A stretch of 58,363 nucleotides of DNA from an uncultured Gemmataceae bacterium (GCA_963750165.1 CAVVPN010000006.1:1-58363), one strand, 5' to 3'. Numbered from the stretch's first letter, positions 1,109 through 38,358 are shown. The notes: a model not told the origin generated them from the letters alone. Translations and numbers: made by a program.

Positions 1109-1146
1109 GTGCAGGCTGTAGGTGCCGAGCAGGTCGCGGTTGTGCT
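1109..1146 (-). pseudogene. Short relic of toxin neck (HNRDLLGTYSLH) abutting the IS66 end
   Basis: Near-identical to the neck segment in the toxin cassettes (e.g. about 14326-14343, 17746-17782). Confidence 0.7.
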
Positions 1147-1252
1147 GTAAGCGCCCGGCCAATCACGTCGATTTGCCAAAAGCAAACGGCGTCCGCCCGT
1201 GGATCACTGCGATCCGCAGGCTGACGCCGTGTTTTTCTGGCTCCGTGTTTAC

Positions 1253-2834
1253 TCACCCGGCCCGGGCGGCACTGCCCGGTGATTCCCGGCCACGTCGCAG
1301 GAGCCACCGATCTGGCAGCCAGTCCAGTAATTGCTCTGCCGTTGGCTGCTCTCCCAACGCGAACATCCCCGGCAGCGCCTCGCGCAGATACCCGAACGGG
1401 TCGATGCCCAGGTGCTTACACGTCCCTACCAGCGTGTACAGCACCGCCGCCGTCTGACCCCCGGCCTCACTACCGAGCACGCCCCAGTTGTTCCGACCCA
1501 GGGCGATGGCCCGTAGCGTCCGCTCGCTCAGATTGTTGTCGATGGCCAGATACCCTTGCTCCAGGTAACGCGCCCGCGCCGCCCAGTTGTTCAAGGCATC
1601 GCCGATGGCCTGACCCAGCGCCGTCTTGGGCAAGGCCCGCGGACGCTCCTCGTCCAGCCACTGCTTCAGTGCGGCCAGGATCGGTTCGGCTTGCTGCTGG
1701 CGGCGCTGCCGGCGTTGCTCTTCGCGCTGGCGGCGCTGTTCCCGGGTGGCCGGCTCGTCCGCGGGCGGCAGCAACAACGGCAGGTCGCGCTCGATGGCGT
1801 ACAACTGCCGGATGCGTTCCAGCGCCGCGTCGGCACGCGCGTCGCCCCCTTCGGCGGCCGCCACGAACTTGCGGCGGGCGTGCGCCCAGCAGCAGACGTG
1901 CTTGACCTTGTCCGCGCCGTACAGCCCTTCGTACTGGGCCAGGGCGTCCGCCTGCAGATAGCCCCGGTAGCCTGCCAAAAAGGTCGTCGGCCCCGCCGCC
2001 GTGTAATCGGCGGTGAAGTCGAACACGGCATACGGGGAGTCGGCGTCGCCGATGCCCACCCACAGGTGCGCCTTGCGGGTCCGGTCCGCCCCCGGCACGC
2101 GCAACTTCACCGTCGTGTCGTCGCCGTGGATCACCCGCGCGAGCAACAGGCGTTGGTGCATCAGCTGGTACAGCGGGTCGAGCAAAGCCGCTGCCCCGGC
2201 CAGCCAGTCGCCCAGCGTGGACCGCGCCACGGTGACGCCGGAGCGACCGAGTTGCCCGGTCAGGCGGTGCAGCGGCGTGGGGTCGGCGAACTTGGCCGTG
2301 ATGACGTGGGCCAACAGACCGGGGCCGCACAACCCCTTGGCGAGCGGCCCGACTTGCTCCGGCCCGGCCGTCTGCAAGCGCTGCTCGACCGGCACACAGG
2401 CCGGGTCGCAGTGCTGGCAGGCATAGGTCTTCTTGACGGTGCGGCGCACGAAGAAGCGGGCCGGCTCCAGGTCCAGTTGCTCGGCCGTTTGCGTACCGAT
2501 GCACACCCGCCCTTGGCCGCAGCAAGGGCAGAGCTTCTCCGCCTCGGTCAAGTCGTGGACCACCTCGCGGCGCTCCAGGTGTTCGGGCAACGCGGCGCGG
2601 CCGTGCTCGTCGCGGCGTGGCTTGGGCTGGTCCTCGTCACGCGTCTTGGGCTGGGGCCGGCGGCGTTCCGAGCGGCGGCCGAAGCGGTGCTGGAGCGCCT
2701 GGTCGAGCTTGCTCTTGAGTTCCGCGTTCTCGGCGCAGCCGGGCCACTTCCGCGAGCAGTTCGCGGATCAGGGCTTGCAGCGCCGCCACGTCATCGGGCA
2801 ACGGAGCATCGGGAGGGAAGGAGGAGGCGTCCAT
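1253..2834 (-). CDS. tnpC: IS66 transposase TnpC, frameshift near 2735
   Basis: N-terminal coiled coil (LPDDVAALQALI...RFGRRSER), CPCCG Zn finger, HGDDT, LQADA, CWAHARRKF, IDNNLSER. Confidence 0.9.
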
Positions 2835-2874
2835 GCCTGGTGAAACCCCGGCGCAGCTGCCGGGTAGCGGTGGC

Positions 2875-3228
2875 TCAGCGCGGCGGCGTGAAGTGCTTGA
2901 AGCGGCGGACGCGGGACAGGTCGATGCCGTCGAGGATCATCTGGAACTGGCCGGCGGTCAAGGCGACGCTCGTGCTGTCGGCGGGTGCCTCGGGGAAGTG
3001 GTAGCGGCCCGCCTCCAGGCGCTGGCAGAACAGGCACAGGCCGTGCCCGCCCCAGTACAGCACCTTGAGGCGGTCGGCGTTCTTGTTGCGGAAGATGAAG
3101 AGGTGGCCGGACAGCGGGTCGGCCTGGAGGCGGTTGCGCACCAGGGCGAACAGGCCATCGAAGCCGAGGCGCATATCGACGGCATCGGGGCAGTACCACA
3201 GTTGAACGGCGGGAGAGAAGCTCAGCAC
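2875..3228 (-). CDS. tnpB: IS66 accessory protein TnpB
   Basis: VDMRLGFDGL, GHLFIFRN, LKVLYW, QRLEAGRY motifs. Confidence 0.93.
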   Translation of the reverse strand: MLSFSPAVQLWYCPDAVDMRLGFDGLFALVRNRLQADPLSGHLFIFRNKNADRLKVLYWGGHGLCLFCQRLEAGRYHFPEAPADSTSVALTAGQFQMILDGIDLSRVRRFKHFTPPR

Positions 3229-3600
3229 GGCAGCACTCCCAACAAGCGGAGCAAGGAGCCGAGGGTGGCCGCATCGGCGCCAGGGCCGAGGCGCAGGACG
3301 GCGCCGCCGGGCAGGACCAACTCGATGGCCGGGGTCTGGTCGGCGAGGCGCACGGGCAGCAAGCGCGGGCCGGCTTCCGGCCGGGAAAACTCTGGGCCGG
3401 CAGAGAGGTTCTGTGCGGCGAGGCGGCGCTTCCAGAGGTAAAAGGAGGCGACGGAGACGCCCTCGGCGGCGCAGAACTGAGCGGTGGTCAGGCCGGCGGC
3501 GGCGAAGCGGGCGAGGCGCTCGGCCCAGGTCTGGCGGACGGCGTCACGGGAGGCGCGGGGAGTGAGGGACTTCGGTCGGAGCAAGAATCGGTTCGGACAT
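3222..3600 (-). CDS. tnpA: IS66 accessory protein TnpA; probable frameshift near the start
   Basis: WAERLARF..GLTTAQFCAAEGVSVASFYLWKRRL, IELVLPGG; ATG at 3600 with upstream GGAGG is out of frame with the body. Confidence 0.85.
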
Positions 3601-3675
3601 GGGAGACCTCCAGAGGATCGGGCGACCCCTCCAAGGTACTCATCTCGTCAAGGACGTGATCCGCCGGGCGGGTAC

Positions 3676-3948
3676 GGTGTAGGTGGCGTAGGCCGAGACG
3701 GTGGCCAGGCCGGCGCCGCCCGTGCCCGCGATGGTGAGCAGGCTGAGCGTGGCCAGGGTGCCGGCACCGCTGCCGGACACGGAGTCGGAGCCCGTGTCCA
3801 GGCTGCTCTGCCTCGACAGGTAGGTATCCAGGCTGTCGGCGGGGTACTTGGGGTTGGCGTAACTGCGGTTGCCCGCGGCGTTCAGGCTGTAGGTGGCCGC
3901 CCAGTCGCGGTCGAGCGCGAACGTGACGTTGCCGGTGTCCCCGGTCTC
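3676..3948 (-). pseudogene. Divergent toxin-neck fragment truncated by IS66
   Basis: Translates ETGDTGNVTFALDRDWAATYSLNAAG...QSSLDTGSDSVSGSGAGTLATLSLLTIAGTG...YATYT, homologous to the cassette necks but more diverged. Confidence 0.85.
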
Positions 3949-4104
3949 ATGTTTTCCGAGTTCCGCGAGATAACTTGAGGTGCAATTTGCACCTAACTCA
4001 TGTTGCCGTCATGCATTGCAAGAAGCGTCTCGATTTTCGTTCATGTTGATGCCAGGCAGTTCAAGAAGGGGCTCCTTTTTCATTTTTCCGCGACTCTACC
4101 TTGG

Positions 4105-5613
4105 CAGTCGCACTTTTCCGAGTGCTCAAACCGCGAGATTTACGCAGTTTTTCAGCGCTTCGATGAGTTTCAGGAGTTCCGTTGCATCGGCCGACTTGGG
4201 TTTAATTAGGGCGTTCAAAGTCGCCCGCCGCAACACGGCAACCATATGACGCAACGACCATTCACTCTCCCAGGGTCCCATCACTTGCGCAATTCCTCCG
4301 CCTCCGGCAACTGCCGACCGGCGGTAAGATACCACACCATCACGACGCTCTGCAACGACCACACCCACGGCGCCACCTTCTCCACCGCTTCCCGACTGTA
4401 GTGTTGTGGCGCCTCGAGGTCCAGCACCTGTTTGCTCGCCCGGAACAGTACCTCAATGGACCAGCGCCAGGCGAACTGCGTAATCACCCACCCCACGTCC
4501 GCACGCACGTCGGTCGTGAACAGGTAGGCATCGTCCAACTTCCCGTCCGGGTCGCGCACCACCACCACCTGCACCGGCCGCAACCCCAACACCCGCGGCC
4601 ACACCGCCCGGTAGGCGAACGCCCGCAGGACGCGCTGCTCCCCGTAGACGGTCACCGTCACCGCCTGCCACACCCAGTCCCCGGTGGCCACGCGCTTACG
4701 GTCGGCCTTGGCGGCGGCTGCTTTGGGGTTGGGCAGACGCGGCCCCTTCTTCGCCTTGCGGCCGCGCCGGCCGGGCTTGGCCTGAGGCAGACGCGGGTCG
4801 TACACGGCCGCGTCGCCGCGCAACCGGCCGACGAAGGTCACGCGCTCGTCCAGGTCCGCCAGCAGCGCTTGGGCCGCGTAAGCGCCGTCGGCCACCAGGG
4901 TAAAGCGCCGGCCGGGGAACCAGGCCAGCACTTCGGCGAGCAGCGCGTGCGCGAGCAGTGGGCAGGACGGCTGCGCCTGGCCGGGCCGGTGCAACCGGGC
5001 CAGCAAGGGCAACGCCAGGATCGGGGCGTTCGCGAAGGGCAGGCAGACGGCGACGGCGACGACCACCCAGTTGTGCCCCGCGGCCGTGGCGGTGCGTTTG
5101 CGGGTCGAGGCGACGGCATCGCGGAACCAGCCGAGGCCCCAGACGTGCTTGCCGCGCTTGTGGGCCAGGGTGTCGTCCACCAACAGCGTGATGGTGCCGC
5201 CCAGGTGGAGGCGCGTGAGGATGAGGACGGCGACGTGGTAGGCCAACCCGGTCACGGTCCAGGCGGAGCGCGCAAAGAAGTTGTAGGTGGTGTCCAGGCC
5301 GTGGCGCCGGGAATGGTCCCGCAAGTCTTGGGGTTGGGCGGTGTCGGCGACGCGACAGAGGCGGTGCTGGCCCAGGCACATCACCCAGCCGAGCACGAGT
5401 TGGCAGTGGGTGTGGAACGAGGGCAGGGTGAAGGCCGGGGCGAGGGCTTGGACGATGGGCTGGAGAGAAGCTATCATCAGCCACATGAGGGGCTCCTTCC
5501 GGCGAGTGCATGGCTTGAGAACCTATGCACAAACTTAGGAGGAACCCCTCTCTCTTTCTGCGACAGCCCCGTGACACTATCGGTGTTCGTCTGTTCATGG
5601 AAGCGTGCGACAG
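4105..5613 (-). mobile_element. IS701-like (DDE) insertion sequence
   Basis: Imperfect IRs CAGTCGCACTTTTCC (4105) and CTGTCGCACGCTTCC (reverse complement ending 5613) flank the transposase. Confidence 0.7.
4126..5486 (-). CDS. DDE transposase (IS701-like), frameshift near 4285
   Basis: VDDTLAHKRG, GHNWVV, VADGAY, RWSIEVLF; C-terminus continues in another frame (WESEWSLRHMVAVLRRATL) to 4126. Confidence 0.85.
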
Positions 5614-6975: not shown

Positions 6976-8362
6976 GGCAGCCGTTCAAAATTAGTCCGCA
7001 GCTTACACCTGGGTGCTGATGTTAGAATATTGTCCAACGTGGCTTGATGGTGTAATTCCAACTGGGGCAGACGGCATGCCTTTGGAGGCGCCACGTCTGC
7101 ATTTCTGCGTCCGGCACCTTGACCCCCTTCGCGTACTCCGCGTCCAGCAACGTCGCACGTACCGCCCAACCGGCGTCCGTCTCCGTGCCCCGGATGCAGG
7201 CCAACAGCGTCTCCACGGTTCGCAGCGGCTCCCCCGCCCAGTTGACGCTGATGCGGCTGAACAGCCGGTGCTCCACCGGGTTCCACTTCGACGCCCCCCG
7301 CGGGTAATGGCACACCGTCACCCACAGCCCCCAGCGGTCGGCCAACTCCTCCTGGAGGCGCTGTTTCCACAACCGCACGCGGCAACTGTTGCTCCCGCCC
7401 GCGTCGCACAGGATCAGCAACTCGTCGGCCTGCGGGTACCACAGCCGTCCCTCGCCGCGCCACCACCGGCCGATCACGTCCCCCGCGAACGCCGCGGTGT
7501 CGGCGGACAACCCCACGTAGACATGGCCGCGGTCCTGGCGCACGTCGTAGACCCCGTAGGGGACGGCCCGGCCCAAGGCGTCGTCCAGGAAGTCGTGGGC
7601 GTTGACCTCCGTCGCGCGCCGGCACCACTGCCGCCCTGCATTCTTGAAGTTGCCGATCAACTCCTTTTTCTTGCTGTCCACGCTGATCACCGGCTGGCCG
7701 AGGATGGCGAAGCGGCGCCGCTGCCCGGCGATGTACGCGAACTGCCGGTCCCGGTCTGGGTGAGGCGGGCCGGTGAAGCGCTTGCGGTTGGCCTTGAGCG
7801 AATAGCCCAGGTCGTCCAACAGGCGATAGACCGTGGCGGGGCTGACGGCGAAGCCTTGGCCTTGCAACCGCGTGCTCAGGTAGGCGACGCTGTGGCGCAC
7901 CCACTTCTGACAGGTTTGCGGGCTGCCGGCGGTCTGCTCCTCAACCAGCTGCCTCAAAGCGTTCATGAGGCCCGGCACTTTTTTTTCACAGCGGGCCGTC
8001 CTGCCCCGGGCCGGCGGATGCGATCCGGGGGGCAGTCCCGCAGGGAGTCCTCGAGTTCCCGGCGACCGCGCCGGATGGTTTCCACGTTCAGGCCGGTGAT
8101 GAGGGACAGTAGGCGGTCGCCGCCGCGGCCGACCTTCTGGGACTCCCAGGCTGCCAACCACCGGCGTTGGTGCTCATCCAACCGGCTCAGGAGAAGGTTG
8201 AGCCGGTAATGGAGGGCGCGTTCGGGGTGGTCCGCACCTTGTCGGCAGTGAGGGCATTGGCATTGGTGGATGTCCACGGCTCTGCCTCCCTTCCAAACCA
8301 GGCCCCCGGTTGGGCCAGGGTTATTGTAGAAGGGAACTGCGGATTAATTTTGAAACGTTGCC
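6976..8362 (-). mobile_element. ISAzo13-family insertion sequence
   Basis: IRs GGCAGCCGTTCAAAATTAGTCCGCAG / GGCAACGTTTCAAAATTAATCCGCAG; TTA target duplication at 6973-6975 and 8363-8365. Confidence 0.92.
7022..8277 (-). CDS. ISAzo13 transposase, two ORFs joined by a probable -1 programmed frameshift
   Basis: ORF A 8277-7963; ORF B has ISVDSKKKELIGNF, CDAGGSN, SKWNPVEHRLF, WNYTI; A8-G slippery run at 7978-7986. Confidence 0.9.
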
Positions 8363-8394: not shown

Positions 8395-11291
8395 CTAGAG
8401 GAATCTCCTCAGCAGAGGATCCTTATTGGCTCCCTTCATCTTGTTCGGGACGATCTTTTTGTAATACTTGAGGAGATCGCGGATCCCATCATCGTACATT
8501 GTGGGCTTTCCGGCCTGCTTTGCAATTTTGCGGATGTCTTGGATGTCTTTTTTAAGCACTTTCAGGAATGCAACACCCGTGTCGGTCACCTTGGTCGCCT
8601 TGCCTGCATTTCCGTAAGTCCGTGTCTGTGCGTGACGGTTGCCCCTCATCATGACCGCTCCCCCGTCCTGCCGAGGAAGGTGCCCAAGGCCGTCCTGGGG
8701 CATGTGATGAGGAGTTAGTTTATCACCTGTTTTTCCTCGCGGCTTCAGGTCGCCAAATCTGCCACCTTCGCCTTCTTTGACGTAGGCGTTGTGTGCCCAG
8801 ACGGAGAAACCCCACCCGTCGTCGCCGACGAAGTAGGTGTGGAAGTCGGCCACGCGCAGGTTGTACACCTGCTGGTACAGGCCGCTCGGCGCCACCCCCG
8901 CCACCGCCGTCGTAGCCTCGCGCTCCATCCCCAGGATACCGTCACCAATAGCCAACTCACCCGCCGCCGTCCAGCCCCGGCCCGCCACCCCGAACGAGTG
9001 CTCCGCCGTCGTCTCGATGATGCGCCCGCCCACGTGCAGGTTCGTCACCAACGCCCAGGTCACGAACACCGCCTCGACCCGCTTCCACACCAGCGGACCT
9101 TCCGGGTCGTTCTCGTCCCGCGACAGCACTTCGTCGCCCACCCGCAGCCGGTCCAGCCGCCGCCAGCCCTCGCCCCAGTCCCCCCGCGCGTACACCTTGG
9201 TCCGGCCCGTGAAGCACGAGCGCGTGGCCGAGAAGAGGTCCGCGGCCCCCTGCGCCACCTGGAGCATGCCCCCGACCAGGTCGCCGTTGGCGATGGCCTG
9301 GATGCCCTGCACGCCGCTGCCGACCCCCTGCACCACCGACACGCCGCGCGTCACCCAGACCGCCGCGAACTCCGCCACCGAGCCCGCGAACTCCCCGGCC
9401 GCCTTCGAGGCCGTCCAGCCCTTGGCCGCCGCGCCCACCACGCACGGACCCGCCTGAATCGCAAACATCGCGATTGACTGGCCCGCCATCCAGCCCGCGT
9501 CCGTCCACCGCCCCGCCAGCGCCGCGTCCCCCGCCTGCGCCAGCCCCCCGGCCAGCTGGTAGCCGCGCAGCGCGTTGGCCGCCACCCCCAGCCAGCCCCC
9601 CGGCGTCCACACCGTCAGCGCGATCTGCACCACCTGACCGGCCTGCTGCCCCGCCTGGTACGAGCCCGACTGCGTGTTGATGAACCCGCCCAGGCTCAGG
9701 TCGCCCCCCGTCAGCAGCCCGTACCCCGAGCTGTTCAGCAGCCAGCGGCCGAACTGCGTGCGGAACAGCCCCCCCGTCAACTGGTCCGCCACCCCCGCCA
9801 CCCACTCCACCCCGCGCCGCCAGTAGTCCGTCGTCACGCTCCCGCCCGGCGGCAGGTTGCGCGCAGCGCCTCCCAGCTCTTCGTCGCCGCCAGCGCCAGC
9901 GGGTCGGCCGCCCGCGCCGCCTGCTCGAAGCGCAGCCAGGCGTCGTCCAGCACGGGCTCGGCCGGCCCGCCCGGCAGCAGCAGCGCCCACACCCGCCACT
10001 GGTTCACCGGCAGCCCCGCGCCGGCGCTGGCCTGCGTCAGCCAGTCCGTCTCGCGCGTCGCCGGGTTGTACGGGCCGTCCGCCACCCGCCACGGCCGGTC
10101 CGTCATGGCGAACACCCGCCAGCCCGTGGCGTACGGGAACAGGCCCTCGTACTTGGCCGCCACGCCCGGCGCCAGCGGCGGCGGCACCAGCCCATCCGGC
10201 AGCGCCAGCGCCAGCGCCCGCGGCCAGCGCGTCGGGTCGGCCATCCCGTCTGCCCCGCCCGGCTCGAGGATCTCCGTCCAGCCCTGCAGCAGGTTCAGCC
10301 CGGCGTGGTTCGGCTCCCCCGGGCCGGCCAGCGCCGCCGCCGTGTCGGTCGGCCCGTTGCTGTAGTTCTCGTCGCTGCCGCCCTGGGTGTAGGTGGCGTA
10401 AGACGCGGCACTGGCGGTGCCGGTGGCCCCCGTCCCCGAGACGGTGAGCAGGCTGAGCGTCGCCAGGGTGCCCACCCCGCTGCCGGACACCGAGTCGTAG
10501 CCGGTGTCCAGGCTGCTCTGGTTCAGGTCGTAGGAACTCAGGTCGTAGGCGGGCGCGCTGTTGCCCACGGCGGTGGACGTGCCGACGGCGTGCAGATTGA
10601 AGGTGCCGCGCAGGTCGCGGTCGTGCGCGAAGCTGGTGCCGCCGCTGTCGCCCGTCTCGGCCGAGCTGAACGAGCCGGTGGCGGCGTCGTCCTGGGTGAA
10701 GCCGATGGTCGTGGTGCCGCTGGCGCCGGTGTTGGTGACGTTCAGCGCCAGGGTGAAGCCGCTGTCGCCGCCGCCGGTGGCCGAGAAGCTGTCCGTGCCC
10801 GACTGGCCGCTGTAGGACCACGACTCGTAAGTCCCCTTGGCGGCGCTGAAGCTGTTGCCCCCGGTCTGGTCGTCCGTCCAGCGGGCGCCGGCGAAGTACT
10901 GGAAGGAGGTCACCGAGACGGTGTCCGTGGCCCACTGCTCGTCGCTGGAGGAGTAGCTGCCCAGGTTGGTGTCGCGGAAGCCGCTGCCCGTGGTCGTCAG
11001 CGTGTTGCGGCCCGCCAGGTCGATGGACAACTCGTCGCCGCTGGTGACCTTCAGCGCGTAGCTGGACAGGCCGTAAGGCCAGCCACTGCCGCCGGCCGCC
11101 CCCTCGACGTGCAGGGTGGCCAGGGACCAGCGGTCGTCCTGGGCGGTGCCGGCCTGCCAGGAGTCGTCCTGGGTGGTGGCGGTGGCGTTGAACGGCGCGT
11201 TCTGGCCCAGCGCGAAGGTGCCGGTGACCGTGCCGTTGGCCGACACCGTCTCCCGGCTGGTGTACGTCACGCCCTGCGTGGCACTGGCGAC
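8395..11291 (-). pseudogene. Orphan toxin cassette 7: neck, Hint (allele B), HNH-like nuclease tip (8395-8787)
   Basis: 5'-truncated copy of the giant gene; CF..TAEH..VYNL..HTYFV..AHN Hint; tip GDKLTPHHMPQ...HAQTRTYG; frameshift near 9858. Confidence 0.85.
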
Positions 11292-11550: not shown

Positions 11551-11572
11551 ATTTAATAACTCTTCTCGTCAC

Positions 11573-12106
11573 TCAAGGTCGCGTAAGATACCAATAAAGG
11601 TACTGTTCGAGATTTGGGAACCTGTTGAACTCATAATTATCATACGACCAAACTTCTGGTTCGCTGATCTCGTCTTTCCAGGCAAGATAAATCAGAACGT
11701 CCGGCACTCCCGGTGTGACACCAAAAAGAGACAACTTATTATCAGAGAACAACATAGGTGCAGAACCTTCGTAGTGCCCACGCAAAGCTGTGTGCCGAAT
11801 TCTGATTGACCGTTTTTTTATCCATTTCATCATATCCTTTGTCCCAAGCCAAAGATACCAACCCGTATCCACAGTGCTTGCATACTCAAATCTAGCCCGC
11901 AACATTTCGGTCGGGCTGTAAGTTGCCTTCGAGGAAAAGGTCGGAATTGTATCAAATGCTTCTGGTGGATTGATCGCAATCTCCAATGGGTCGAAGGGGC
12001 CCTGTTTTGCCATGTAGCTTTCCGCTTCCTCTTTTCTTCGAGGGAAGTCCCTAACAATGTCATCCAACAGTTTCCAAATTCTGCGCTGAGTGTCCAGTTT
12101 TTCCAT
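11573..12106 (-). CDS. Immunity protein for cassette 6 (possibly SUKH-like)
   Basis: AT-rich ORF directly after the tip; C-terminal EPEVWSY...RFPNLEQYL. Confidence 0.7.
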   Translation of the reverse strand: MEKLDTQRRIWKLLDDIVRDFPRRKEEAESYMAKQGPFDPLEIAINPPEAFDTIPTFSSKATYSPTEMLRARFEYASTVDTGWYLWLGTKDMMKWIKKRSIRIRHTALRGHYEGSAPMLFSDNKLSLFGVTPGVPDVLIYLAWKDEISEPEVWSYDNYEFNRFPNLEQYLYWYLTRP

Positions 12107-14370: not shown

Positions 14371-14484
14371 CTTGGTGGCCGCCGTGGGAGGGGGTAAGCC
14401 CGCCGTCGAAGGTAAGGTCGCCACTATCCTGGTTGATGTCGGCGCTGTTGATGAATCTGCTGTTGGTGCCAGATCTGAGGCTGA

Positions 14485-15419: not shown

Positions 15420-15442
15420 TGACGCTCTCCCTATGCTCCTTA

Positions 15443-15556
15443 GAGGCTGTTCCAAATGCAAACGTTTGTTCAGTATGACTTATTACTGACAGTGTCGAAA
15501 ACAGCGCGTTTTTTAGCTACTAACACGGTAGCTATTTAGCCTTTTGGAACAGCCTC
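15443..15556. mobile_element. 114-bp MITE with IS5-family-like ends
   Basis: Perfect 14-bp TIR GAGGCTGTTCCAAA...TTTGGAACAGCCTC; TTA duplication at 15440-15442 and 15557-15559; no ORF. Confidence 0.85.
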
Positions 15557-17812: not shown

Positions 17813-17896
17813 TGATTGTCGCGGGCCAAGCAGAGGTATATTTTATTCCTAACTCATTTCACCATCATACTTTGCCAGAAGCGTCCCCAATTATCC

Positions 17897-22379: not shown

Positions 22380-22462
22380 ATGGCCCAAGGCGGTGACGAT
22401 CTCGGCGGCCCAGTCGCCGTCACGGGGCGAAGGTGAGTCGCTAGTGTCGCGAGGCCGTTTGA

Positions 22463-24862: not shown

Positions 24863-24936
24863 CTGTGTCATGCAATCACAAATGAGGGAGTACGGAAAAC
24901 CAGCACCAATTATACTTCAGCTGATTTCAATATGAA

Positions 24937-25269
24937 TTAGCAAGGATAGTCGCACGAAAATGGGAATGTGAACAACTCTGAATTAAGGTTTCGCTTTGAA
25001 AGGAAAGATTCTACCTCCTCAAGGGAGTCAGCCACCACGTTTTCGTGGTTAATGATGAACGGTTCGTCTCCGTCGAGATTGTTATCCCTCTCTTCAAGAT
25101 CTTTGATGCCAATCTCGATCCAGCGTAAGCGATACCGCTTTCTCTCATCGTCGGGGTCCAGGAAAGGGTAAATTGCAACCCACGATCGATACCCTGGCAA
25201 CGACGCAGGGACTTCAGTAGCTAATACTTCACCGCGATCAAGGTTCCAGACAAATGTAGAATCCAGCAC
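24937..25269 (-). CDS. Immunity protein for cassette 2 (unassigned)
   Basis: AT-rich acidic 110-aa ORF, GGAGG RBS, GTG start, directly after the tip. Confidence 0.7.
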   Translation of the reverse strand: MLDSTFVWNLDRGEVLATEVPASLPGYRSWVAIYPFLDPDDERKRYRLRWIEIGIKDLEERDNNLDGDEPFIINHENVVADSLEEVESFLSKRNLNSELFTFPFSCDYPC

Positions 25270-28795: not shown

Positions 28796-29143
28796 CTAAT
28801 GTCGTTTTCGACGACGCTTGCTCTCTTTTACTGATGTTCTCAGATCTCGCCACCTCCACGAAATAAGGCCATCTGGTTGTATCGCAGGGATGGAAATACC
28901 CCTTTTATCACCTTTTTCATCTAACAACTCCCAATTATCCTCGTTTAAGAAATGCTCCGGGAATGGTGGATCCTGCGAGAAATTATCTGGGTTTGTCATA
29001 AAATTGAAAAATTCAAAGAATTCAGAGGTAACACTAGGGCCCGGAGCAAACTGTCCATGCATCCAAAGGCCCTCGCCCTCGACAGACGTAATTTCTCCAA
29101 GCACCCGGCCAGAGAAAAGTAATTCCACAGCGTTTTTCCTCAA
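28796..29143 (-). CDS. Cognate immunity protein of the full-length toxin
   Basis: TTG start overlaps the toxin TGA; AT-rich; no recognised family. Confidence 0.7.
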   Translation of the reverse strand: MRKNAVELLFSGRVLGEITSVEGEGLWMHGQFAPGPSVTSEFFEFFNFMTNPDNFSQDPPFPEHFLNEDNWELLDEKGDKRGISIPAIQPDGLISWRWRDLRTSVKESKRRRKRH

Positions 29144-32100
29144 TGCGATCTTGTGACCGTCAAAAACCGAGATGGGACAACCCCCTGGATCAAGTACTCA
29201 TTGTCTCTGATTGCGAAGGATGTTGCCATCTTCTTCCAATGAGGAGTGAGGTTGGGATCGCGCTGGATTGCTCTCCGCACCTGCGATGGCGTGTAAATCC
29301 TCACCCCTTTTACTTCACCGGACCTGATCGCGGCCCGAAGTCCTTTGAGATCGACCTTAATGACGTTTTTCCCGTATCCAGCCGCAACCTGCCCATTCGG
29401 CGTGAGACTAATGAAGGGGCTATTGGACTTGGCACGTCCCCGGAACCCACCAAGGACATGCTCACCAACCGAGACTTGCCTGCCCTTATATTGCCCAGTC
29501 AGGCTCGCAGGTCGCAGATCGCCAGCCCGGTTAATGTAAGGTTTACGGAGTCCGTTCTTCGGGCTTAGGGCTTTCCGGGGAGCGTCATCACCTCGGTAGC
29601 CGTTGTTCGCGTTGTGTGCCCAGATGGAGAAGCCCCACCCATCCCCGCCAACGAAGTAGGTGTGGAACTCCTCCACCTGGAAGTTGTAGACCGTCGTCAC
29701 TTCGCCCGTGTCGGTGACGCCTTCGACGCGCAGCACCTGGCCGTCGTGGCTGAGCAGCAGGTCGCCGTCCTCCAGGAACGCCGCCCCCGTCCACCCCTTC
29801 CACAAGACGTAGAACGGGTGCTCCGCCGTCGTCCGCACCTCCACCCCCGCCACCCGCACCGCCAGTATAGGCGCCACCCGCACGAACGTCTGCACCACCC
29901 GCCGGTACGCCAGCGGCCCGTCCGGGTCGTCCTCCGCGCGCGACAGCAGCCGGTCGTCGAAGGTGATGTCCTCCACCGCCTTGAGGCCGCCTTCGGTGTG
30001 CAGCTTGGTCCCCGCCGGGAAGCACGAGCGCGTGGCCGAGAAGAGGTCCGCGGCCCCCTGCGCCACCTGCAACATGCCCCCGACCAGGTCGCCGTTGGCG
30101 ATGGCCTGGATGCCCTGCACGCCGCTGCTGACCCCCTGCACCACCGACACGCCGCGCGTCACCCAGCTCGCCGCGAACTGCGCCACCGAGCCCGCGAACT
30201 CCCCGGCCACCTTGCCCACCCGCGCACGGCCCCGCCTGGATGAGCAGCATCGCAAACGACTGGCCCGCCATCCAGCCCGCGTCCGTCCACCGCCCCGCCA
30301 GCGCCACGTCCCCCGCCTGCGCCAGCCCCCCGGCCAGCTGGTAGCCGCGCAGCGCGTTGGCCGCCACCCCCAGCCAGCCCCCCGGCGTCCACACCGTCAG
30401 CGCGATCTGCACCACCTGACCGGCCTGCTGCCCCGCCTGGTACGAGCCCGACTGCGTGTTGATGAACCCGCCCAGGCTCAGGTCGCCCCCCGTCAGCAGC
30501 CCGTACCCCGCGCTGTTCAGCAGCCAGCGGCCGAACTGCGTGCGGAACAGCCCGCCCGTCAGCTGGTCCGCCACCCCCGCCGCCCACTCCACCCCGCGCC
30601 GCCAGTAGTCCGTCGTCACGCTCCCGCCCGGCGGCAGGGCGGCGCACAGCGCCTCCCAGCTCTTCGTCGCCGCCAGCGCCAGCGGGTCGGCCGCCCGCGC
30701 CGCCTGCTCGAAGCGCTGCCAGGCGGCGTCCAGCACGGGCTCGGCCGGCCCGCCCGGCAGCAGCAGCGCCCACACCCGCCATTGGTTCACCGGCAGCCCC
30801 GCGCCGGCGCTCGCCTGCGTCAGCCAGTCCGTCTCGCGCGTCGCCGGGTTGTACGGGCCGTCCGCCACCCGCCACGGCCGGTCCGTCATGGCGAACACCC
30901 GCCAGCCGGTGAAGTACGGGAACAGGCCCTCGTACTTGGCCGCCGCGGTCGGCGCCCAGGCGGCACCACCAGCCCATCCGGCAGGGGCAGCGCCAGCGCC
31001 CGCGGCCAGCGCGTCGGGTCGGCCATCCCGTCTGCCCCGCCCGGCTCGAGGATCTCCGTCCAGCCCTGCAGCAGGCTCAGCCCGGCGTGGTTCGGCTCCC
31101 CCGGGCCGGCCAGCGCCGCCGCCGTGTCGGTCGGCCCGTTGCTGTAGTTCTCGGTGCTGCCGCCCTGGGTGTAGGTGGCGTAAGACGCGGCACTGGCGGT
31201 GCCGGTGGCCCCCGTCCCCGAGACGGTGAGCAGACTGAGCGTCGCCAGGGTGCCCACCCCGCTGCCGCTGACCGAGTCGTAGCCGGTGTCCAGGCTGCTC
31301 TGGTTCAGGTCGTAGGAACTCAGGTCGTAGGCGGGCGCGCTGTTGCTCACGGCGGTGGACGTGCCGGCCGCGTGCAGGCTGTAGGTGCCGCGCAGGTCGC
31401 GGTTGTGCTCGAAGTTGGTGCCGCCGCTGTCGCCCGTCTCGGCCGAGCTGAAAGAGCCGGTGGCGGCGTCGTCTTGCGTGAAGCCGATGGTCGTGGTGCC
31501 GCTGGCGCCGGTGTTGGTGACATTCAGCGCCAGGGTGAAGCCGCTGTCGCCGCCGCCGGTGGCCGAGAAGCTGTCCGTGCCCGACTGGCCGCTGTAGGAC
31601 CACGACTCGTAGGTCCCCTTGGCGGCGCTGTAGCTGTTGCCCCCGGTCTGGTCGTCCGTCCAGCGGGCGCCGGCGAAGTACTGGAACGAGGTCACCGACA
31701 CGGTGTCCGTGGCCCACTGCTCGTCGCTGGAGGAGTAGCTGCCCAGGTTGGTGTCGCGGAAGCCGCTGCCCGTGGTCGTCAGCGTGTTGCGGCCGGCCAA
31801 ATCGATGGACAACTCGTCGCCGCTGGTGACCTTCAGCGCGTAGCTGGACAGGCCGTAAGGCCAGCCGCTGCCGCCGGCCGCGCCCTCGACGTGCAGGGTG
31901 GCCAGGGACCAGCGGTCGTCCTGGGCGGTGCCGGCCTGCCAGGAGTCGTCCTGGGTGGTGGCGGTGGCGTTGAACGGCGCGTTCTGGCCCAGCGCGAAGG
32001 TGCCGGTGACCGTGCCGTTGGCCGACACCGTCTCCCGGCTGGTGTACGTCACGCCCTGCGTGGCACTGGCGACGCCGTCGAGCAGGAAACAGGACAGGCC

Positions 32101-35100
32101 CGAGTCGTCATACTCGCGGTGGCTCTCGTAGTCGCCGTTGCTCAGGGCCAGCAGACTGAAAGTGGTGGTGGCGTTGTCCTCGCTGATCAGGTTCTGCACC
32201 CCCCTGGGGTGCGCGGACGACCGCAGGGACGTTTGGGTCTGGATGCTGTGGGTGACGCGGTCGTCGGTCAGGGTGAGCTGGCTCTCCCCCTCGGCGTCGA
32301 AGACGACCGAGTCCAACACCCAGCCACCCTGATCGAGGCTGTAGCTGCCGGCCTGGTGCTGGTTGAACTCGTCGTCAGACGACTGCTGGAGCACCTGGGT
32401 CTGGCTGCCGTCCTGCGTGCCGGTGACCAGCGAGGTCGAGAGCGAGGTGTCGGTCATCGAGAAGCCGGACTCGTCGGTCTGGGTCGTGGTCAGCACCGAC
32501 GAGGACAGCGCCGCGTCGCGCCAGTCGAAGGTCATGCTGTCCAGCGCGTACGAGCCGCCGGCGAACGAGCCCGACTGGGACAGCGCGTAGCTGCCGGTGC
32601 TGACCGTCGTGGCCCGGGAGTTGCCGGCCCGGTCGGTCTCGTAATCCTGGAAGCCGTTGTGGCTGAAGCTGCCGGCGGCGCCGCCCGAGTCGGTGTCGGC
32701 CAGCGCGGTGCTGTAGCCGCTGGTGCTGCACTGCTCGCTGCCCTCGTAGTGGATGCACTCCACCGAGGTCAGGGTGGTCGTGGTGGTGCCGACGCGGGTG
32801 GTCGTGTAGACGACGCTGCCGTAGGCGTAGCTGCCGGCGGCGTAGACGCCCTGCTGGGCCTGGCTGGAGTACACGGCGTAGGAGGCGTTCGCGGTCTGGA
32901 GCGTGCTGACGGTGGTGTTGCTGACGGCGGCGCGGCTGCGGCGGTCGTAGTCCAGGGTGCCCTGGGGGGCGGTGAGCGTGGCCAGGGCGGTGTCCTTGCT
33001 GATGCTGCTGAGCGAGATGGTCTGCAGGTAGTTCGTGGAGCAGGCCAGGGCGGTGGTCTGCTCGGAGGCGGTCGTGGCCAGGCTGTCGCTGTAGGCGTTG
33101 ACGCTGGACAGGTCCCAGCCGGCGTTGGTGAGGTAGCCGTCCTCGTAAGCGCGGTTGGTGGACTTGACGTAGCGCGTGGTGTTGTGGTTCTCGACGCCGT
33201 ACTGCGTGGCGACGGACGTCTGGCCGGAGGAGAAGCTGCCGTCGCCGAAGGTGTAGGAGGCGCTGCTCTGGGCCTGGAAGTTGGTGGTCGCGGTGGTGGC
33301 GAGGCTGCTGGTGGTGGCGGCGGTCTCGGTGAACGTGGTCAGGTCGGAGCCGCGCTTGTCGGTGGTCAGGTGGTCGAAGGCGAAGGTGCCGTTCACGACC
33401 GAGCCGTACTGGATGACCGTGCCGGTGCTGGTGCCGGTGCTGGTGAACGTGTCGTTGGTCGCCTGGCTGAAACTGCTGGTGGTGAGCGAGGTGGCGGTGA
33501 ACGTCGCCAGGCCGTAGCCGGCCGGGGAGTCCCCGGTGGTGACCGTCTGCAGGTCCCAGGTTTCGCCGGCGGTGCTGGTGACCAGGGAGTACTGGTTCTG
33601 GGTCAGTGACTCGGTGCTGGTCTCGGTGTTGACCACGCTTGACAGCCCCCAGGTGTCGTTGGTGAACGAGCCCAGCTGGAGGATGGTGTAGCCGTTGACG
33701 AAGCTCTGGTTGGGTACCGAGACGGTGTTGCCGCTCGCCTGCGTGGCCCGCGCGTCGTGGACGACCGTGAAGGAGTCGGCGCCGTTGGCGACCACGCCGG
33801 AGGTGCTCGTCTGCGTGCCCTGCACGGTGAAGGTGTCGGCGGTGGCGTTCGAGGAGGACTGCAGGGCGGTTTGCTGGTACGTGCCGCGGGACACGCCGGT
33901 CTGGGTGTAGACCATGCTGTCGTAGCTGAAACTGCCGTCGAAGTACGCGCCGGTCTGCGTCTGCGTGGTGGTGGTGTTACTGGTCTGGATCAGGGCGTCG
34001 GTGCTGCCGCGGCCCAGGGTGTTGGTCAGGCTGCTGCCGAACGTCACGCCGCCGGTCAGGGTCGTCTCCAGCGCGCCGGTGCCGTAGTAGCCCTGGTAGC
34101 GGACCTCGGTGCTGGTGGCGCCTGAATACTTTTCGAGGTTGAGCGTTTCGGAGGACCCCTGGAACGAGTAGACGCTGCCGAAGGCGTAGCTGTCGTTGGC
34201 GAAGGCGCCCTGCTCGGTGTACAGGTAGCTGCTGGCGCTATTGGTGGTGCTGCTCTGGACCGCCGAGGAAATCTCGGAGTAGGTGCTCAGGCCGGACGCG
34301 CTGAACAGCCCGGTGGCGGCGTAACCGCCCGGCACACCCGTGTCGCTGGCATAGATGGCGTCGATGGAGAAGGTGTCGCCGCCGGTGCCGGTCTGCGTCG
34401 TCGTGCTGGTGGACAGGACCGTGCTGCCGCTGGTGCCCGACTGGTTTTGCGTGACGTTCGCGAAGGCGTAGCTGTCGCCGTTGAAGTCGCCGAGTTGGGT
34501 GAACGTGCTGTAGTCGGTCCCCGTCTCCGTCGAGGTGAACGAGGTGGTAGCCGTGGTGGTCTGCGCGGACCAGCGTGTGAACGACTGCGGCCCCAGCGCG
34601 GGCAGCGTGTTGCTCGGGAAGACGGCGGCGCCGGAGCGCTCGCCGGTGGCGGTCCAGCTGTCGGTGTTGCCGTCGCTGGCCGTGCCCTGCTGCGTTTGCG
34701 TCCAGCTGGTGGTGCCGTAGTCGCCGGAGTTGACGCTGGACAGGTTGTAGCTGTCGCCGTTGAAGACGCCGGCCTCGTAATAGGTCGAGGTCGTGGTGCT
34801 GTAGGCCGTGTAGGCGGACGTGCTGAACAGGCTGTGCGACTCGCCCGACCGCCCCGCGCGCACCACCCGGGCCGGGCCGCCGCCCACGGGCAGCGTCCAG
34901 TAGGTGTAACTGTCGCTGAGGCTGTTGCTGGACGTGCTCGTGTCGGTCTGCTGGAAGGTGCCGTTCTGGTGGCTCACCTGCTGGTTGACCACGCTGGTCA
35001 GGCTGTAGCTGAAGTTACTGAAGATGCCGGCGCCGGTCTGCGTCGCCAGGCTGTCGCCGTTGTTCTGACTGGTGGAGCCGGTGGTGTCGCTGAAGGTGCC

Positions 35101-38100
35101 GTCGGAGGTCTCCTGGACGGTGCCGGTGCTGGGGCCGACGCTGAGGGTGTCGCCGCCGTAGTCCTTGCCGTCGCCGGCCTGGTTGGTCCTCAGCGTGTCG
35201 TAGTGGTACGAGCCGCTGTTGGTCGCGGACTGCGTCTCGGTGGCGGACCAGGTCTGCCGGCTGACGGAGGTGTCGGTGATGCTGTTCAGGCCGTCGCTGC
35301 CCAGGCTGTAACTGCCGGCCTCGTAATGACTGGTGCTGTCACTGAAGTAGAGCGTCTGGGTGGACGATGAACTGCTGGATTGGGTAATGGTCTCCTGCCC
35401 CGACATGCTCTGGATGCTGGCGTCCGCCGCGCCGGAGCCGTTGATACCGGCGCCGGCCACCGAGGTGTTGGAGTTGTAGTAGGTGGTGAGGGTACTGTCG
35501 GCACCGCCCCCGGAGGCGGAGGTGACGGTGCCGTTGGAGGACTCGCTGCTCTGCAGGACGACGCAGCTCAGGCTGAAACTGCCGGCGCCGAACACGCCTT
35601 CCTGGTGCTGGTACACGCTGCCGGAGCCGGAACTGGTCACGGTCTCGGCGGAGTAGTTGTTGTAGCTGCCGGTCGAGGTCTGCACCAGGGAGCCGCCGCC
35701 GAAGGTGCCGCCGGTCGAGGCAATCGTGACGTTACTGCTCCAGGAGAAGTGACCGCTGGTCGATTCCGTGGACGAGTTCTTGCGGCTGAAGGTGCTCGTG
35801 GTCGAACTGGTCTGCGCGAAACTACTCAGGCCGAAGGAGCCGTTCGCGAAGGCCCCGCCCTGGTAGTAGGTCATGGTGCTCGTGGAGTTGACGGTCTCGC
35901 TCGAACTCGTGGTGCGCGTGGTGGAGAAACTGGTCGTGCCGGATTGCGCGAAGGTGCCGAGGTCCCCCTGGACCGGGTTGCCGCTGGCGAGCACGGTCTG
36001 GCCGCCGAGTTGCGACTGAGTGAACCCCTGGGAGCCGCTCTCGGTGGCGGTCGTGGTGTCGGACGAGACGACGGTATCCTTGGAGGTCTGGGTGCCCAGG
36101 CTGGTGACGCTGGTGAAGTGGTAACTGAAGCCCGCGTAGACGCCCTCCTGCCGGGTGCTGAAGCTGGTGGTGCCGGCGCTCGTGGAGTTGTCGGTGCTGG
36201 TCTCGCTGGCGGGGCCGGTGGTGGTGTCGGTGAGGGAGCTGCCGTCCGAGTTGGAGTAATCGACGCCGGCAAAGGACATACCGCCGGCGTCGCTTCCGCT
36301 GTCGGTTTCGGTCATGGTTTCCGTGCCGGATTCCGCCTGCGTCTCGATGCTGGTGGTTGTCCCGAAACTCGTGGCCGCACGGTCAATCGCCACGCTGGAC
36401 AGGTTCCAACTGCCGCCGGAGAACTGGCCCGCGCGGTAGTCGGCCCGGGAAAAGGTGCCGCTGAAGATGGCCGTAAGGCTCTCGTTGTCGGTGTAGCTGT
36501 ACGAGCCGGTGTCCGTGAAGTCGAAGGCCCCCTGCCCGCTGTCGCCGGTGGTGGCGTAGGTGGTCGTGTCGCTGCCCGTTCCAGTGCCGTGGTCGGAGTC
36601 GGTGGCGGTGCCGCTCTGAGTGTCCTGCCCGGTGACGGTCTGGGCCGAGGACCCGCTCTCGCTGGTGCTGAAGACGAAACTGGAGAGTGAGACGCTGGTG
36701 CCACCCTTGCCGCCACCGCTGGCGCTGCCGATCTGCGTCAGGGTGTAATTCAGTTCCCCCGATTCGTTGAGGCTCTCGGAGGAGGTGCCCGTGCCCGTGT
36801 AGGTCGAGGTGGTGCCGTAGGATTCCGTGTTGACGCCGTCCTGGGAACTGGTGCTGCCGAACGCCTGCGTGAAGCTGTCGGTGCCGGTCCCGTTCTCGGT
36901 TGCACTGCCGGTGGCGCTTTCGGTCTCGGTGACCGACTGATCCGTTGAAAACGTGCCCGAGGCCGACAGTCCCAGGCTGAAGTTGGAGAGGTCGTACCGT
37001 TGCCCCGCGTAGGACCCCAGGATGGAGCGGTCGTAGGTGCCGGCGGCGGATTCGGAGCGGTGGCCGGACAGGGATTCGGTGAAGGTGCCGCTCTCACCGT
37101 CCACGGTGCCGTCGGTCAGGGTGCCGTCGATGCCAAAGCTATTGACGCCGGCCAGCGATTCCGTGGCGCTGAACGAACCGGAATCTCCTTCACCGTAGAA
37201 CAGGGACAGGGACTGGTTTCCGGAGCCCTGCCCGGCGTAGGTCAGGCTGCCCAGGCTGAAGGAGCCCCCGGCGTAGCCGCCCTGTTCGGTCAGGGTGAAG
37301 GGGCCGGAGCTATCTTCGTGGTAGGTGAACGTGTCCGACTTGATTTTGAAGGTGAGGGCCTCACCCTGGGATTCGTGGACCTGGTTCTGGGGTGGGCCAA
37401 AGGATTGCAGCCCACTGGCCGTCATTGTGCCGGTCGCGGTGTAGGTCCCCGTCTCGTCCAGCGAGGCGCTGCCCGAGCCCGTCTCGCCGTAGGCCACGCT
37501 GCCGAAGACGAAATCCCCGGAGTAGGAGCCGTCTTCGTGGAGGGTGAAACTGTCCTGCCCCTGCTGGGTGCCGCTGAACGCCCGGACGGTCGTGCTCGCG
37601 TACGCCTCGCTGCCGGTCTCCTCCAGGTCCGCGACGGGCTCACTGCCACTGGCGGTCAGCGTGGCCAGGCCGTCGCTCAGTGTCAGCGCGTAGTTCTCGT
37701 CCCCCGCCTCGTCCACGGTGAAGCTGTCGGCGCTCAGGCTGGACAGGCCCAGGCCGTTGTCGTCCGAAAGTTGCTGGGTCAGGCCGCGCCAGTTGAGCCC
37801 GGCCCAGAAGAAGGGGTCCGCGACCGCCCCGTCCGTGACCACGACCGTCTCGGTGCCGCCCAGCGACTGGACGGTTTCGTCGCTGCCGTCCAGTTCCAGG
37901 TATGTCCAGTCGAGTGTGGCGGTCTGCGTGGCCGAAGCGCTGGTGGGACTGAAGCCTGTGGGCGTGAGTTGTCCCGCGACGCTCAGGCTGAAGGCAACTG
38001 TGCCGGACTCCCAGAAGGCGTAGGAGTCGCCGCCGACGGTGCCGGCCTGGTTCAGGGTGAGGCTGTAGTCCCCGCCGGTGGTCAGCGCGAAACTGCCGGT

Positions 38101-38358
38101 CACGTCGCTGGTGCCGGACTGGGAGTCGAACAGCGGTTGCAGCTCGGCCGCCACGGGCTGGAACAGCCGGTATCCGAAGTAGCCTCCGGAGATACCGCTG
38201 TTGACCTCCAGGCGCTGCGGCAGCCAGACGTTGAGGCTCAGCAGTTCGCGGCGCTCCAGCAGTTCGAGGTTCGGGCGGAGCTGCGGGGGCTTCCCGGAGC
38301 GGGATTTCTTCCGCCGGAAACGTCCTGTCAGTCGGGCAAACCAAGAGGCCGGTTCCAT
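29140..38358 (-). CDS. Giant polymorphic toxin: LExRxLL export motif, Ser/Thr-rich stalk, neck, Hint (29611-30024, allele A), ART-like tip (29140-29610); two indels
   Basis: AGGAG plus ATG at 38358; LRPNLELLERRELLS; one C fewer near 30958 and one extra near 30220 versus sibling copies; tip YRGD...SPFISLT...DNEYLI. Confidence 0.88.

Follow-up and report, generated by a model that had tools for sequence, protein, structure and literature searches.

A probable polymorphic toxin locus of an uncultured Gemmataceae bacterium: a giant repeat-stalk carrier with a planctomycete N-terminal motif, a Hint domain and seven variable tips

Contig CAVVPN010000006.1 of an uncultured Gemmataceae bacterium (GCA_963750165.1) carries one giant gene followed by a series of shortened copies, each with a different end, and this arrangement raises the question of what kind of protein the gene encodes, what is carried at the variable end and by which route the product could leave the cell. 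The DNA analysed here, referred to as the window, is this whole contig of 58,363 nucleotides (contig C6 of a 12-contig, 9.62-Mb genome of 66% GC, hereafter G000), and all features of the array are located on its minus strand. Taking together the order of the domains, the catalytic residues, the families of the tips and of the immunity genes, the tracts of homology with their mosaicism and the conservation within the family, we conclude that the locus is most probably a planctomycete polymorphic toxin system on a previously undescribed carrier.

After comparison of the main gene with the window by blastn, one long gene and six co-oriented partial copies (A to F) were identified, the copies being 86-95% identical in DNA to the stretch 29606-32954 of the main gene over tracts of 1.2-3.4 kb. 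The full-length toxin gene (29140..38358; 9,219 bp) starts with ATG at 38358 after AGGAG and ends with a stop at 29140. It is followed by the orphan cassettes F (25303..28207; homology tract 26097-28207), E (23116..24875; tract 23633-24862), D (18562..22380; tract 18995-22379), which is an intact frame of 1272 aa, C (15564..17822; tract 15953-17812), B (12149..14416; tract 12540-14370) and A (8395..11291; tract 8786-11291). The original prediction of a complete 9.2-kb gene with six 5'-truncated copies agrees with this result in the number and orientation of the copies, but not in the single open frame, because the main gene as assembled contains two frame breaks. All six copies lose the 5' end, at four different points, and the sequence upstream of the 5' junction is common to A and F (~130 bp) and to B and C (~12 bp), indicating that the orphans have themselves been duplicated. 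By sequence comparison, degenerate Hint fragments were also found at the 5' junctions of cassettes F (28223-28735), C (17897-18154) and A (11317-11568). These fragments carry a different Hint N-terminus, C..G[TS].LAT.DGPK.VEDLRPGDQLLT, directly upstream of the truncation points, and are probably left over from the events by which the orphans arose.

The homology stops directly after the sequence W(G/D)FS(V/I)WAHN, beyond which seven unrelated tips follow, each present as a single copy in the genome. The GC content is 76% for the neck, 68% for the stalk, 50-58% for the tips and 45-58% for the downstream open reading frames (ORFs), and the predicted switch right after WAHN to unrelated, AT-richer tips with AT-rich ORFs behind them was borne out. 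The necks had also been predicted to be nearly identical, which is correct for the neck DNA but not for the Hint region, the DNA of which falls into three sequence types (main gene/E, D/F/A and B/C) with an identity of ~57%. The three Hint types re-converge within the last ~100 bp before WAHN, and the tips differ within each type; the switch point after WAHN therefore holds. Copy D and the main gene are 100% identical in protein sequence over 667 aa (32955-30955) and diverge thereafter.

The domain immediately preceding the switch point, PT-HINT of the main gene (29611..30027; SCF...TTAEH...WAHN), was recognized by both the Pfam profile and a structural model. PT-HINT (PF07591) was detected in all seven copies (E 4e-12 to 3e-19; profile positions 3-137 of 137), each retaining Cys1 (SCF), TT(A/G)EH (the block-B TxxH) and the terminal HN, and the Hint model is confident, with a predicted local distance difference test score (pLDDT) of 84-94. 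The residue after the terminal N is A, D, E, E, A, A or S, and the lack of a splicing nucleophile in six of the seven copies excludes splicing in those six. For A-type bacterial intein-like (BIL) domains, cleavage at the junction is the expected chemistry, and here it would free exactly the variable tip. Judging from the catalytic residues, which are present, the Hint of the carrier should be an A-type BIL/PT-HINT autoprotease, with cleavage predicted at this junction.

The tips, ~130-175 aa in length, are predicted toxin domains, and two of them are followed by genes of established immunity families. Tip 5 (15567-15953, cassette C) is a predicted WHH-type HNH/EndoVII nuclease (E 3e-11), behind which are located a SUKH-1 (SMI1/KNR4) gene (14979..15461; E 4.7e-24) and a second AT-rich ORF (14485-14982; ORF scan); the pairing of WHH with SUKH has been described (PMC3113570). 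Tip 4 (18565-18993, cassette D), which is 36% identical to the tip of a full-length relative (P0009), is Tox-URI2-like with the signature Y...KYGE, and is followed by an Imm44 gene (18155..18553; E 2.1e-16, full-length match). Both the signature and the pairing of Tox-URI2 with Imm44 are listed by Zhang et al. (2012, PMC3482391; cited here and below for the parts of that paper drawn upon). Tip 3 (23116-23637, cassette E) is deaminase-like, with HxE...PCxxC and a weak match to OTT_1508 (E 2e-3), and the AT-rich ORF of 207 aa after it (22463..23086) gave a weak Imm5-like match (E 0.041).

Tip 1 of the main gene (29143..29610; 156 aa) belongs to no Pfam family, and yet it matched 55 proteins at E<=1e-3, mostly LXG+PT-TG toxins of Bacillaceae, which are ~50% identical over 97% of the tip; three other matches carry PT-HINT. 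The nearest embedding clusters are families of ADP-ribosyltransferase toxins (score 0.96; 191/256 features), and we take an ADP-ribosyltransferase-like nature of tip 1 from this only as a lead. The ORF directly behind it (28799..29143; up to 115 aa, 45% GC) is a candidate immunity gene by complex prediction, in which an interface score (ipSAE) of 0.93 was obtained in 3/3 runs, against 0.01 for the best of three controls, with a partner pLDDT of >=85 and agreement between runs in >=97% of the contacts. In the calibration of this test the mark was reached by 51/78 solved pairs and by 2/108 mismatches. A sequence search of the PDB with tip 1 gave no resembling chain (best E 0.087), and the result is therefore unlikely to reflect a remembered complex. 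The predicted interface covers R9, S71, D139 and E141, which would belong to an R...S...E pattern as in ADP-ribosyltransferases.

The other three tips also lack a Pfam family, and PDB sequence searches with tips 1, 2, 6 and 7 gave nothing below E 0.08. For tip 2 (25306-25695, cassette F), the embedding pointed to unnamed clusters (0.90-0.91), followed by Ntox37 and Tox-HNH-EHHH at 0.88, again as a lead only, and an AT-rich ORF of 110 aa without family by Pfam scan (24937..25269) lies behind it. Over its full length, tip 6 (12152-12541, cassette B) shares 66% identity with the end of an RHS + PT-HINT protein from elsewhere; an AT-rich ORF of 177 aa, likewise without family by Pfam scan (11573..12106), comes after it. 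The motifs PHHMP of tip 7 (8398-8787, cassette A) and DVGHVPD of tip 6 resemble those of HNH/EndoVII-type nucleases, an assignment that we do not claim. Directly behind tip 7 an ISAzo13-type transposase (7022..8161; E 2.4e-113) has been inserted, and beyond this insertion sequence (IS) lie a HEAT-repeat ORF (6369-6953; 48% GC) and an AT-rich ORF without family (5635-6423; 48% GC). These two ORFs (together 5635-6953) are possibly immunity genes that the IS has separated from tip 7; Zhang et al. (2012, PMC3482391) include HEAT repeats among the immunity types. The far end of the array (1107..5486) is eroded: stalk remnants at 1107-1146 and 3676-3948 are separated by transposases of the IS66 (1253-2590) and DDE_5 (4281-5486) types. 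Such stalk remnants, the transposases and the Hint fragments at the junctions are debris that had not been included in the earlier description of the locus.

The array thus combines variable C-terminal domains on a conserved body (seven tips after neck and Hint), an immunity gene directly behind the toxin (SUKH-1, Imm44 and the partner in the predicted tip 1 complex, the other ORFs being AT-rich and without family) and 5'-truncated orphan cassettes with upstream homology (six copies). The tip and immunity families, together with the truncated copies, support the original proposal of a polymorphic toxin locus that includes orphan toxin/immunity modules.

What, then, is the body on which these tips are carried? 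The carrier N-terminus reads MEPASWFARLTGRFRRKKSRSGKPPQLRPNLELLERRELLS. The first 30 residues hold 9 K/R, and no hydrophobic h-region was found within the first 100 aa (maximum Kyte-Doolittle value 0.45 over 15 aa). The basic stretch is followed by the motif LELLERRELL (aa 31-40; 38239..38268), and ELLERRELLS fits the tail, ExLExRxLL[A/S], of the published consensus, in agreement with the LExRxLL motif noticed at the outset. In the parts of PMC8567305 drawn upon here, Studholme et al. (2004) are cited for RRLxxExLExRxLLA, a consensus presumed to be a novel export signal, and the motif is reported for 52 proteins of T. immobilis, including 8/10 of the longest of that organism; 20 of these motif proteins were detected by proteomics, 8 of them solely in the SDS-soluble fraction. 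When G000 was searched for the strict form of the motif, 21 occurrences were found in open segments of >=200 aa, of which 13 have >=300 aa downstream. No more than 88 codons separate the motif from the upstream stop in 11 of these 13, and one instance starts a frame of 11,353 aa.

The motif is followed by a conserved head of ~210 aa (37615..38238; NVWLPQRL... to ~aa 248), common to all relatives and without Pfam match, and then by a stalk (32158..37614; aa 249-2067) composed of 20 tandem repeats, as defined with a repeat hidden Markov model (HMM) built here. The repeats are ~90 aa long (84-96) with the core G-x-[YF]-x-x-G-S-[YF]-x-L-x-S-V, and S, T and G make up 46% of the stalk residues. All 20 match the repeat HMM with E 1.7e-6 to 1.5e-15, and relatives have 16-27 repeats. 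An AlphaFold2 model of four repeats, for which the alignment consisted of 18 in-phase paralogous repeat windows from this gene plus four relatives, is all-beta, each repeat contributing about four strands of 16-23 residues (pLDDT 69.5; predicted template modelling score 0.53). Foldseek gave no match to this model at E<=1e-3, and the best VIA-align matches (Z 10.6-10.9) were walls of outer-membrane beta-barrels, mostly at a root-mean-square deviation of 5-15 A; RHS, teneurin and FHA are absent among the 50 matches listed by VIA-align, which does not bear on RHS membership. The model suggests, with the moderate confidence that it has, a generic long-strand antiparallel up-and-down beta meander and not an FHA-type parallel beta-helix.

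Beyond the repeats the stalk ends in an irregular S/T-rich segment (30955..32157), which lies within the tract protein-identical to copy D, and passes into the Gly/Ala-rich neck or pre-toxin region (30028..30954), which ends in GD..GG.L...Q.A.D..(R)SCF. The neck, ~300 aa before the Hint, is moderately hydrophobic (maximum Kyte-Doolittle value 1.27) and was modelled as eight helices with low confidence (pLDDT 40-70). In the Pfam search at E<=10 the pre-toxin family PT-TG (PF14449) was not matched by the neck, the sole match being DUF4644 at E 0.062. Neither head, stalk nor neck belongs to a Pfam or NCBIfam family, and the 2540-aa main frame matched no Pfam family at E<=0.01, RHS/YD, FHA, LXG, WXG100, PAAR, VgrG and Hcp included. 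The absence of YD/RHS, FHA, LXG and PAAR signatures, read earlier from the sequence alone, is therefore confirmed at the level of Pfam, and HMM comparison of N-terminus, stalk and neck with Pfam and NCBIfam revealed no described carrier family.

In order to see how far this carrier is distributed, its first 2400 residues were compared with 5.8 billion proteins, among which 11 full-length relatives were found, 3 of them carrying PT-HINT according to precomputed annotation. In 5 of the 6 relatives read, the N-terminus has the form LExRxL(F/M)-NVWLPQ; in the sixth, P0010 (1662 aa), a right-handed beta-helix region and Ig-like segments precede head and stalk, indicating that head plus stalk can be an internal module. 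With the neck, 20 representatives were found among 1.84 billion proteins, some of which are those of the window itself, and 9 of the 11 short neck matches scanned consist of neck, PT-HINT and an unrecognised tip, in the same manner as the orphan cassettes. A search of genome contigs for related loci with the neck found none. The head was detected in 7/251 genomes of the same family, each from a different genus, in 1/15 genomes of a second family of the order (marginal) and in 1/400 other genomes sampled across the phylum (marginal, E 5.7e-4); from these sequence counts the carrier is rare. One of these genomes, G412, contains a second cassette array of the same kind, where a full-length gene is followed by at least six further Hint cassettes within 40 kb, one of them on a near-complete copy of 2486 aa. 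The tips are again AT-richer, and the neighbours of the cassettes include AHH+Imm11, Ntox17+Imm31, and HEAT and TPR proteins. Since the same layout recurs in G412, the architecture is a conserved property of the family and not an accident of this contig.

Based on these observations, the following course of action can be proposed. As encoded, the gene product is composed, from the N-terminus, of the LExRxLL-type motif, the head, ~20 beta-rich repeats, the neck, PT-HINT and the toxin tip, with the candidate cognate immunity gene directly behind. The N-terminal motif would direct export to the cell surface by a planctomycete route, and the repeats may form a long stalk or sheet presenting the C-terminus. 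The Hint, with its catalytic residues in place, should cut at HN|X and free the tip, which would enter a neighbouring cell, perhaps aided by the Gly-rich helical neck, and kill non-immune neighbours as a nuclease, a deaminase, a likely ADP-ribosyltransferase or by other activities, to judge from family membership. The six orphan cassettes would be silent, until homologous recombination installs a new tip together with its immunity gene. The 1.2-3.4 kb of neck/stalk DNA with 86-100% identity allow such a swap of tips by homologous recombination, and the identity of copy D with the main gene over 667 aa, followed by divergence, is the footprint expected of recent gene conversion, supporting the predicted switching.

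Whether the locus is still in operation depends on how its frame breaks are interpreted. As assembled, the main gene shifts frame at ~30958 (GGGG -> GGG relative to copy D) and returns to the first frame at ~30222 by gain of a G (GG -> GGG), and single breaks are found in F (~26094), A (~9857) and E (23646, at W|AHN between Hint and tip 3, GGG -> GG), making a total of five in ~25 kb of cassette DNA. These five breaks, together with the three transposases and the stalk and Hint remnants within the array, and with a contig rich in mobile elements and including a truncated cas8c, could be taken to mean that the locus is a decaying relic, in which several cassettes, as well as the full-length gene, are real pseudogenes that IS elements have eroded and that no longer take part in delivery. 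As a control, two essential genes were inspected in the same assembly. The rpoB gene is one intact frame of 1259 aa, but rpoC (G000:C12:312568-321531) lies in at least three frames, with at least two frame breaks in ~4 kb, one of which falls inside the invariant GKRVDYS/RSVIVVGPEL. The last ~280 codons of rpoC recur ~4.7 kb downstream (312568-313418), and the breaks and the repeated end together point to assembly indels, with possible local mis-assembly or duplication. As rpoC is broken alike, the assembly should contain indel errors at a rate of about one per few kb, of the same order as the breaks in the cassettes, so that assembly error alone would give the density observed. In addition, 4 of the 5 breaks lie in or next to G runs, the frames are otherwise clean, the catalytic residues are kept in all Hints, and the main gene and copy D share 100% protein identity over 667 aa. 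By this comparison of sequences the frame breaks of the array are probably assembly errors or artefacts, and we consider it unlikely that the locus is a relic.

One class of break deserves separate description. A one-base loss (TGGGCGCA -> TGGCGCA) at the W|AHN junction between Hint and tip was found in four cassettes of two genomes (window 23646 in cassette E; G000:C11 ~709770 in an RHS toxin; G412 L011 ~10500 and L012 ~380). The tip is thereby shifted out of frame, while the same context is in frame in cassettes B and C. It may represent a systematic sequencing error or a real recurrent mutation. Programmed -1 frameshifting at this site was considered and rejected, because the heptamer GTCTGGC is not slippery and B and C are in frame with the same context.

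The route of delivery is a separate question. The original prediction stated that the window contains no TpsB or T6SS (type VI secretion system) gene, and none was indeed found among the 41 ORFs scanned, but T6SS-type sheath genes occur on another contig of the genome: a pair of neighbouring VipB/TssC-type genes was identified at G000:C3:940343-943101 (E 4e-131 and 5e-120), from which the genome is judged, by sequence, to have a T6SS-like or other contractile system. A search of the genome for ShlB/TpsB gave none, but the control matched in no genome either. The sheath genes open the possibility that delivery of the carrier relies on a known machine whose genes lie elsewhere, either this T6SS-like system or the Sec/type II secretion (T2SS) route, under which HINT toxins without special leader are filed in the cited parts of Zhang et al. 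(2012), and that LExRxLL is irrelevant to delivery. The carrier, however, lacks PAAR, VgrG and Hcp matches as well as a hydrophobic signal-peptide core in the first 100 aa, and the motif stands at the same place in 5/6 relatives read and heads other giant ORFs of the genome. In the same parts of Zhang et al. (2012, PMC3482391), release by HINT is described as independent of the stalk type, and HINT as never combined with T6SS or PVC (Photorhabdus virulence cassette). Delivery by such a machine is, in our opinion, quite improbable.

In the same genome, three more PT-HINT matches were found on contig C11. One belongs to an RHS+HINT toxin, identified by Pfam scan as a 3751-aa frame (G000:C11:709743-720995, minus strand; L015:4744-15996), in which the motif FDVLERRLVLA is followed by DUF7948, SBBP beta-propeller repeats, Big_9, 27 RHS repeats, a Gly-rich neck, PT-HINT and a tip of ~230 aa in another frame. 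The Pfam scan also identified a T/S-rich Hint protein (4663-aa frame; G000:C11:2064518-2078506, minus strand; L016:4519-18507) with 20% T and 12% S, of which the sole Pfam match is PT-HINT at aa 4214-4347; beyond this match come a Gly-rich hydrophobic tail and AQEG repeats. The repeat HMM of the window gave no significant match to either the C11 RHS protein or the 4663-aa Hint protein, and hhalign of the window repeat against RHS gave a probability of 0.02%. From its sequences, the organism appears to put Hint-released toxins on giant bodies of three or more kinds, of which at least two bear the planctomycete motif, and since an RHS + PT-HINT toxin carries a similar motif, the combination of motif plus Hint is not tied to the stalk described here.

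We put forward only tentatively, and with less conviction than for the toxin system as such, that head, stalk and neck might form a self-contained vehicle exported via the planctomycete LExRxLL pathway, distinct from the carriers linked to type I to type IX secretion systems, in which the beta sheet could be either a presenting fibre or a shell like that of Rhs, and the neck could act as a membrane-translocation device. If this is true, the toxin would be the first selectable read-out for the machinery of the LExRxLL pathway. That the protein is instead a giant self-processing surface adhesin or S-layer-like protein, with binding modules and not toxins at the variable C-termini, is very hard to believe, even though head and repeat stalk carry no toxin-specific feature and four tips have no Pfam family, because the tips include a WHH nuclease and one with a deaminase motif, SUKH-1 and Imm44 genes are among the neighbours, two of the "unknown" tips end LXG and RHS toxins elsewhere, and the sister array in G412 includes AHH+Imm11 and Ntox17+Imm31.

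Against the interpretation as a polymorphic toxin system on a new carrier that is exported by the planctomycete route, several points have to be weighed together. Export, surface display, cleavage, toxicity and switching are all predictions from sequence. The Pfam family Planc_extracel (PF07595) did not match the N-terminus at E<=10; tips 1, 2, 6 and 7 are without Pfam family; and the confidence of the stalk model (pLDDT 69.5) is moderate, its alignment being drawn from paralogous repeat windows. With respect to the state of the locus, IS elements have eroded one end of the array, the full-length gene as assembled has two interruptions and three of the six orphans one each, the intact rpoB indicates that the error rate is not uniform, and the recurrent deletion at W|AHN is not obviously explained by random error. 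We have included these points in our estimate that the locus is most probably a polymorphic toxin system.

The remainder of the contig was also surveyed. A type I-C cas cluster is located at 43447-47036, in which Cas7, Cas4 and Cas1 come after a Csd1/Cas8c that is limited to its C-terminal half (profile positions 321-559 of 559); cas3 and cas5 were not seen among the ORFs scanned, and the cas locus looks truncated on its 5' side. The contig end (50458-58278) encodes a DUF3987 helicase-like protein, a Prim-Pol protein, a helix-turn-helix protein and a tyrosine integrase, a block which looks like an integrative element on a contig rich in mobile elements. Between the main gene and the cas cluster, the sequence of a glycosyltransferase (GT1-like) ORF (38782-41154) becomes junk-like, and a GT2+TPR ORF (40466-42973) overlaps it in a different frame, possibly owing to another assembly frame break or to two overlapping genes within 38782-42973.

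Planctomycetes have an unusual cell envelope, and their giant surface proteins share an N-terminal motif that is a presumed export signal. The present locus joins this motif to a predicted lethal and easily scored cargo and its antidotes, thus offering a practical handle on the export pathway. To the few types of polymorphic-toxin carrier (RHS, FHA, ALF, tail fibre and LXG) it contributes a further stalk type, one that is rare and restricted to a lineage, and it illustrates that the same toxin modules move between planctomycete Hint carriers, T7SS (type VII secretion system) toxins of Firmicutes and RHS toxins.

How new, finally, is this system? The earlier suggestion of an undescribed toxin delivery class was overstated, since the template of N-terminal trafficking element, repeat stalk, pre-toxin, HINT peptidase, variable toxin, immunity gene and orphan cassettes is given in the cited parts of Zhang et al. 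(2012, PMC3482391), and an RHS+HINT toxin of the same genome resembles the carrier at the N-terminus. In principle such a system is already known, and what is new here is the carrier, with a stalk type that has no match in Pfam or NCBIfam; no description of it was found in the partial set of literature searched on planctomycete polymorphic toxins and on the motif, to which the supplements of Zhang et al. (2012) did not belong, and in the parts of PMC8567305 cited above toxin cargo is not mentioned for the motif proteins of T. immobilis.

In comparison with the HINT polymorphic toxin systems as presented in the cited parts of the literature (PMC3482391, PMC3113570), the locus agrees well in domain order, downstream immunity gene and arrays of 5'-truncated orphans, and the families WHH, deaminase, URI, SUKH, Imm44 and HEAT are common to both. 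In contrast, its head, stalk and neck match none of the listed RHS, FilH, ALF or tail fibre stalks, nor PT-TG, PT-VENN or DUF637, and its leader is of the planctomycete LExRxLL type, whereas signal peptide, two-partner secretion (TPS), PAAR, LXG and WXG leaders are found in the systems listed by Zhang et al. With the Rhs/YD toxins and their orphan rhs-CT/rhsI modules it shares a giant beta-rich carrier, a polymorphic C-terminus, orphan cassettes and recombination via conserved upstream sequence, but it contains no RHS_repeat (PF05593), of which the same Pfam scan finds 27 in the C11 protein; the modelled unit of ~90 aa with four long strands differs from the YD hairpin of ~20-40 aa, and the Rhs core with its aspartyl autoprotease is absent. 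CdiA/CdiB resembles it in the long stalk, the exchange of tips at a short junction (VENN in CdiA, WAHN here), the downstream immunity gene and the orphan arrays. Unlike CdiA, the carrier is without TPS domain, FHA repeats and VENN, no CdiB/TpsB was found among the window ORFs scanned, the stalk is predicted to be antiparallel long-strand beta and not a parallel beta-helix, and release would be by Hint. The T7SS LXG toxins of Bacillaceae have the tip 1 domain in common with the main gene, but are proteins of ~570 aa with a helical LXG domain, a different secretion system and no Hint. At its other end the carrier resembles the planctomycete motif proteins in being a giant protein that starts with a basic stretch and then ELLERRELLS, which fits the tail of their consensus; the Pfam model PF07595 did not match it.

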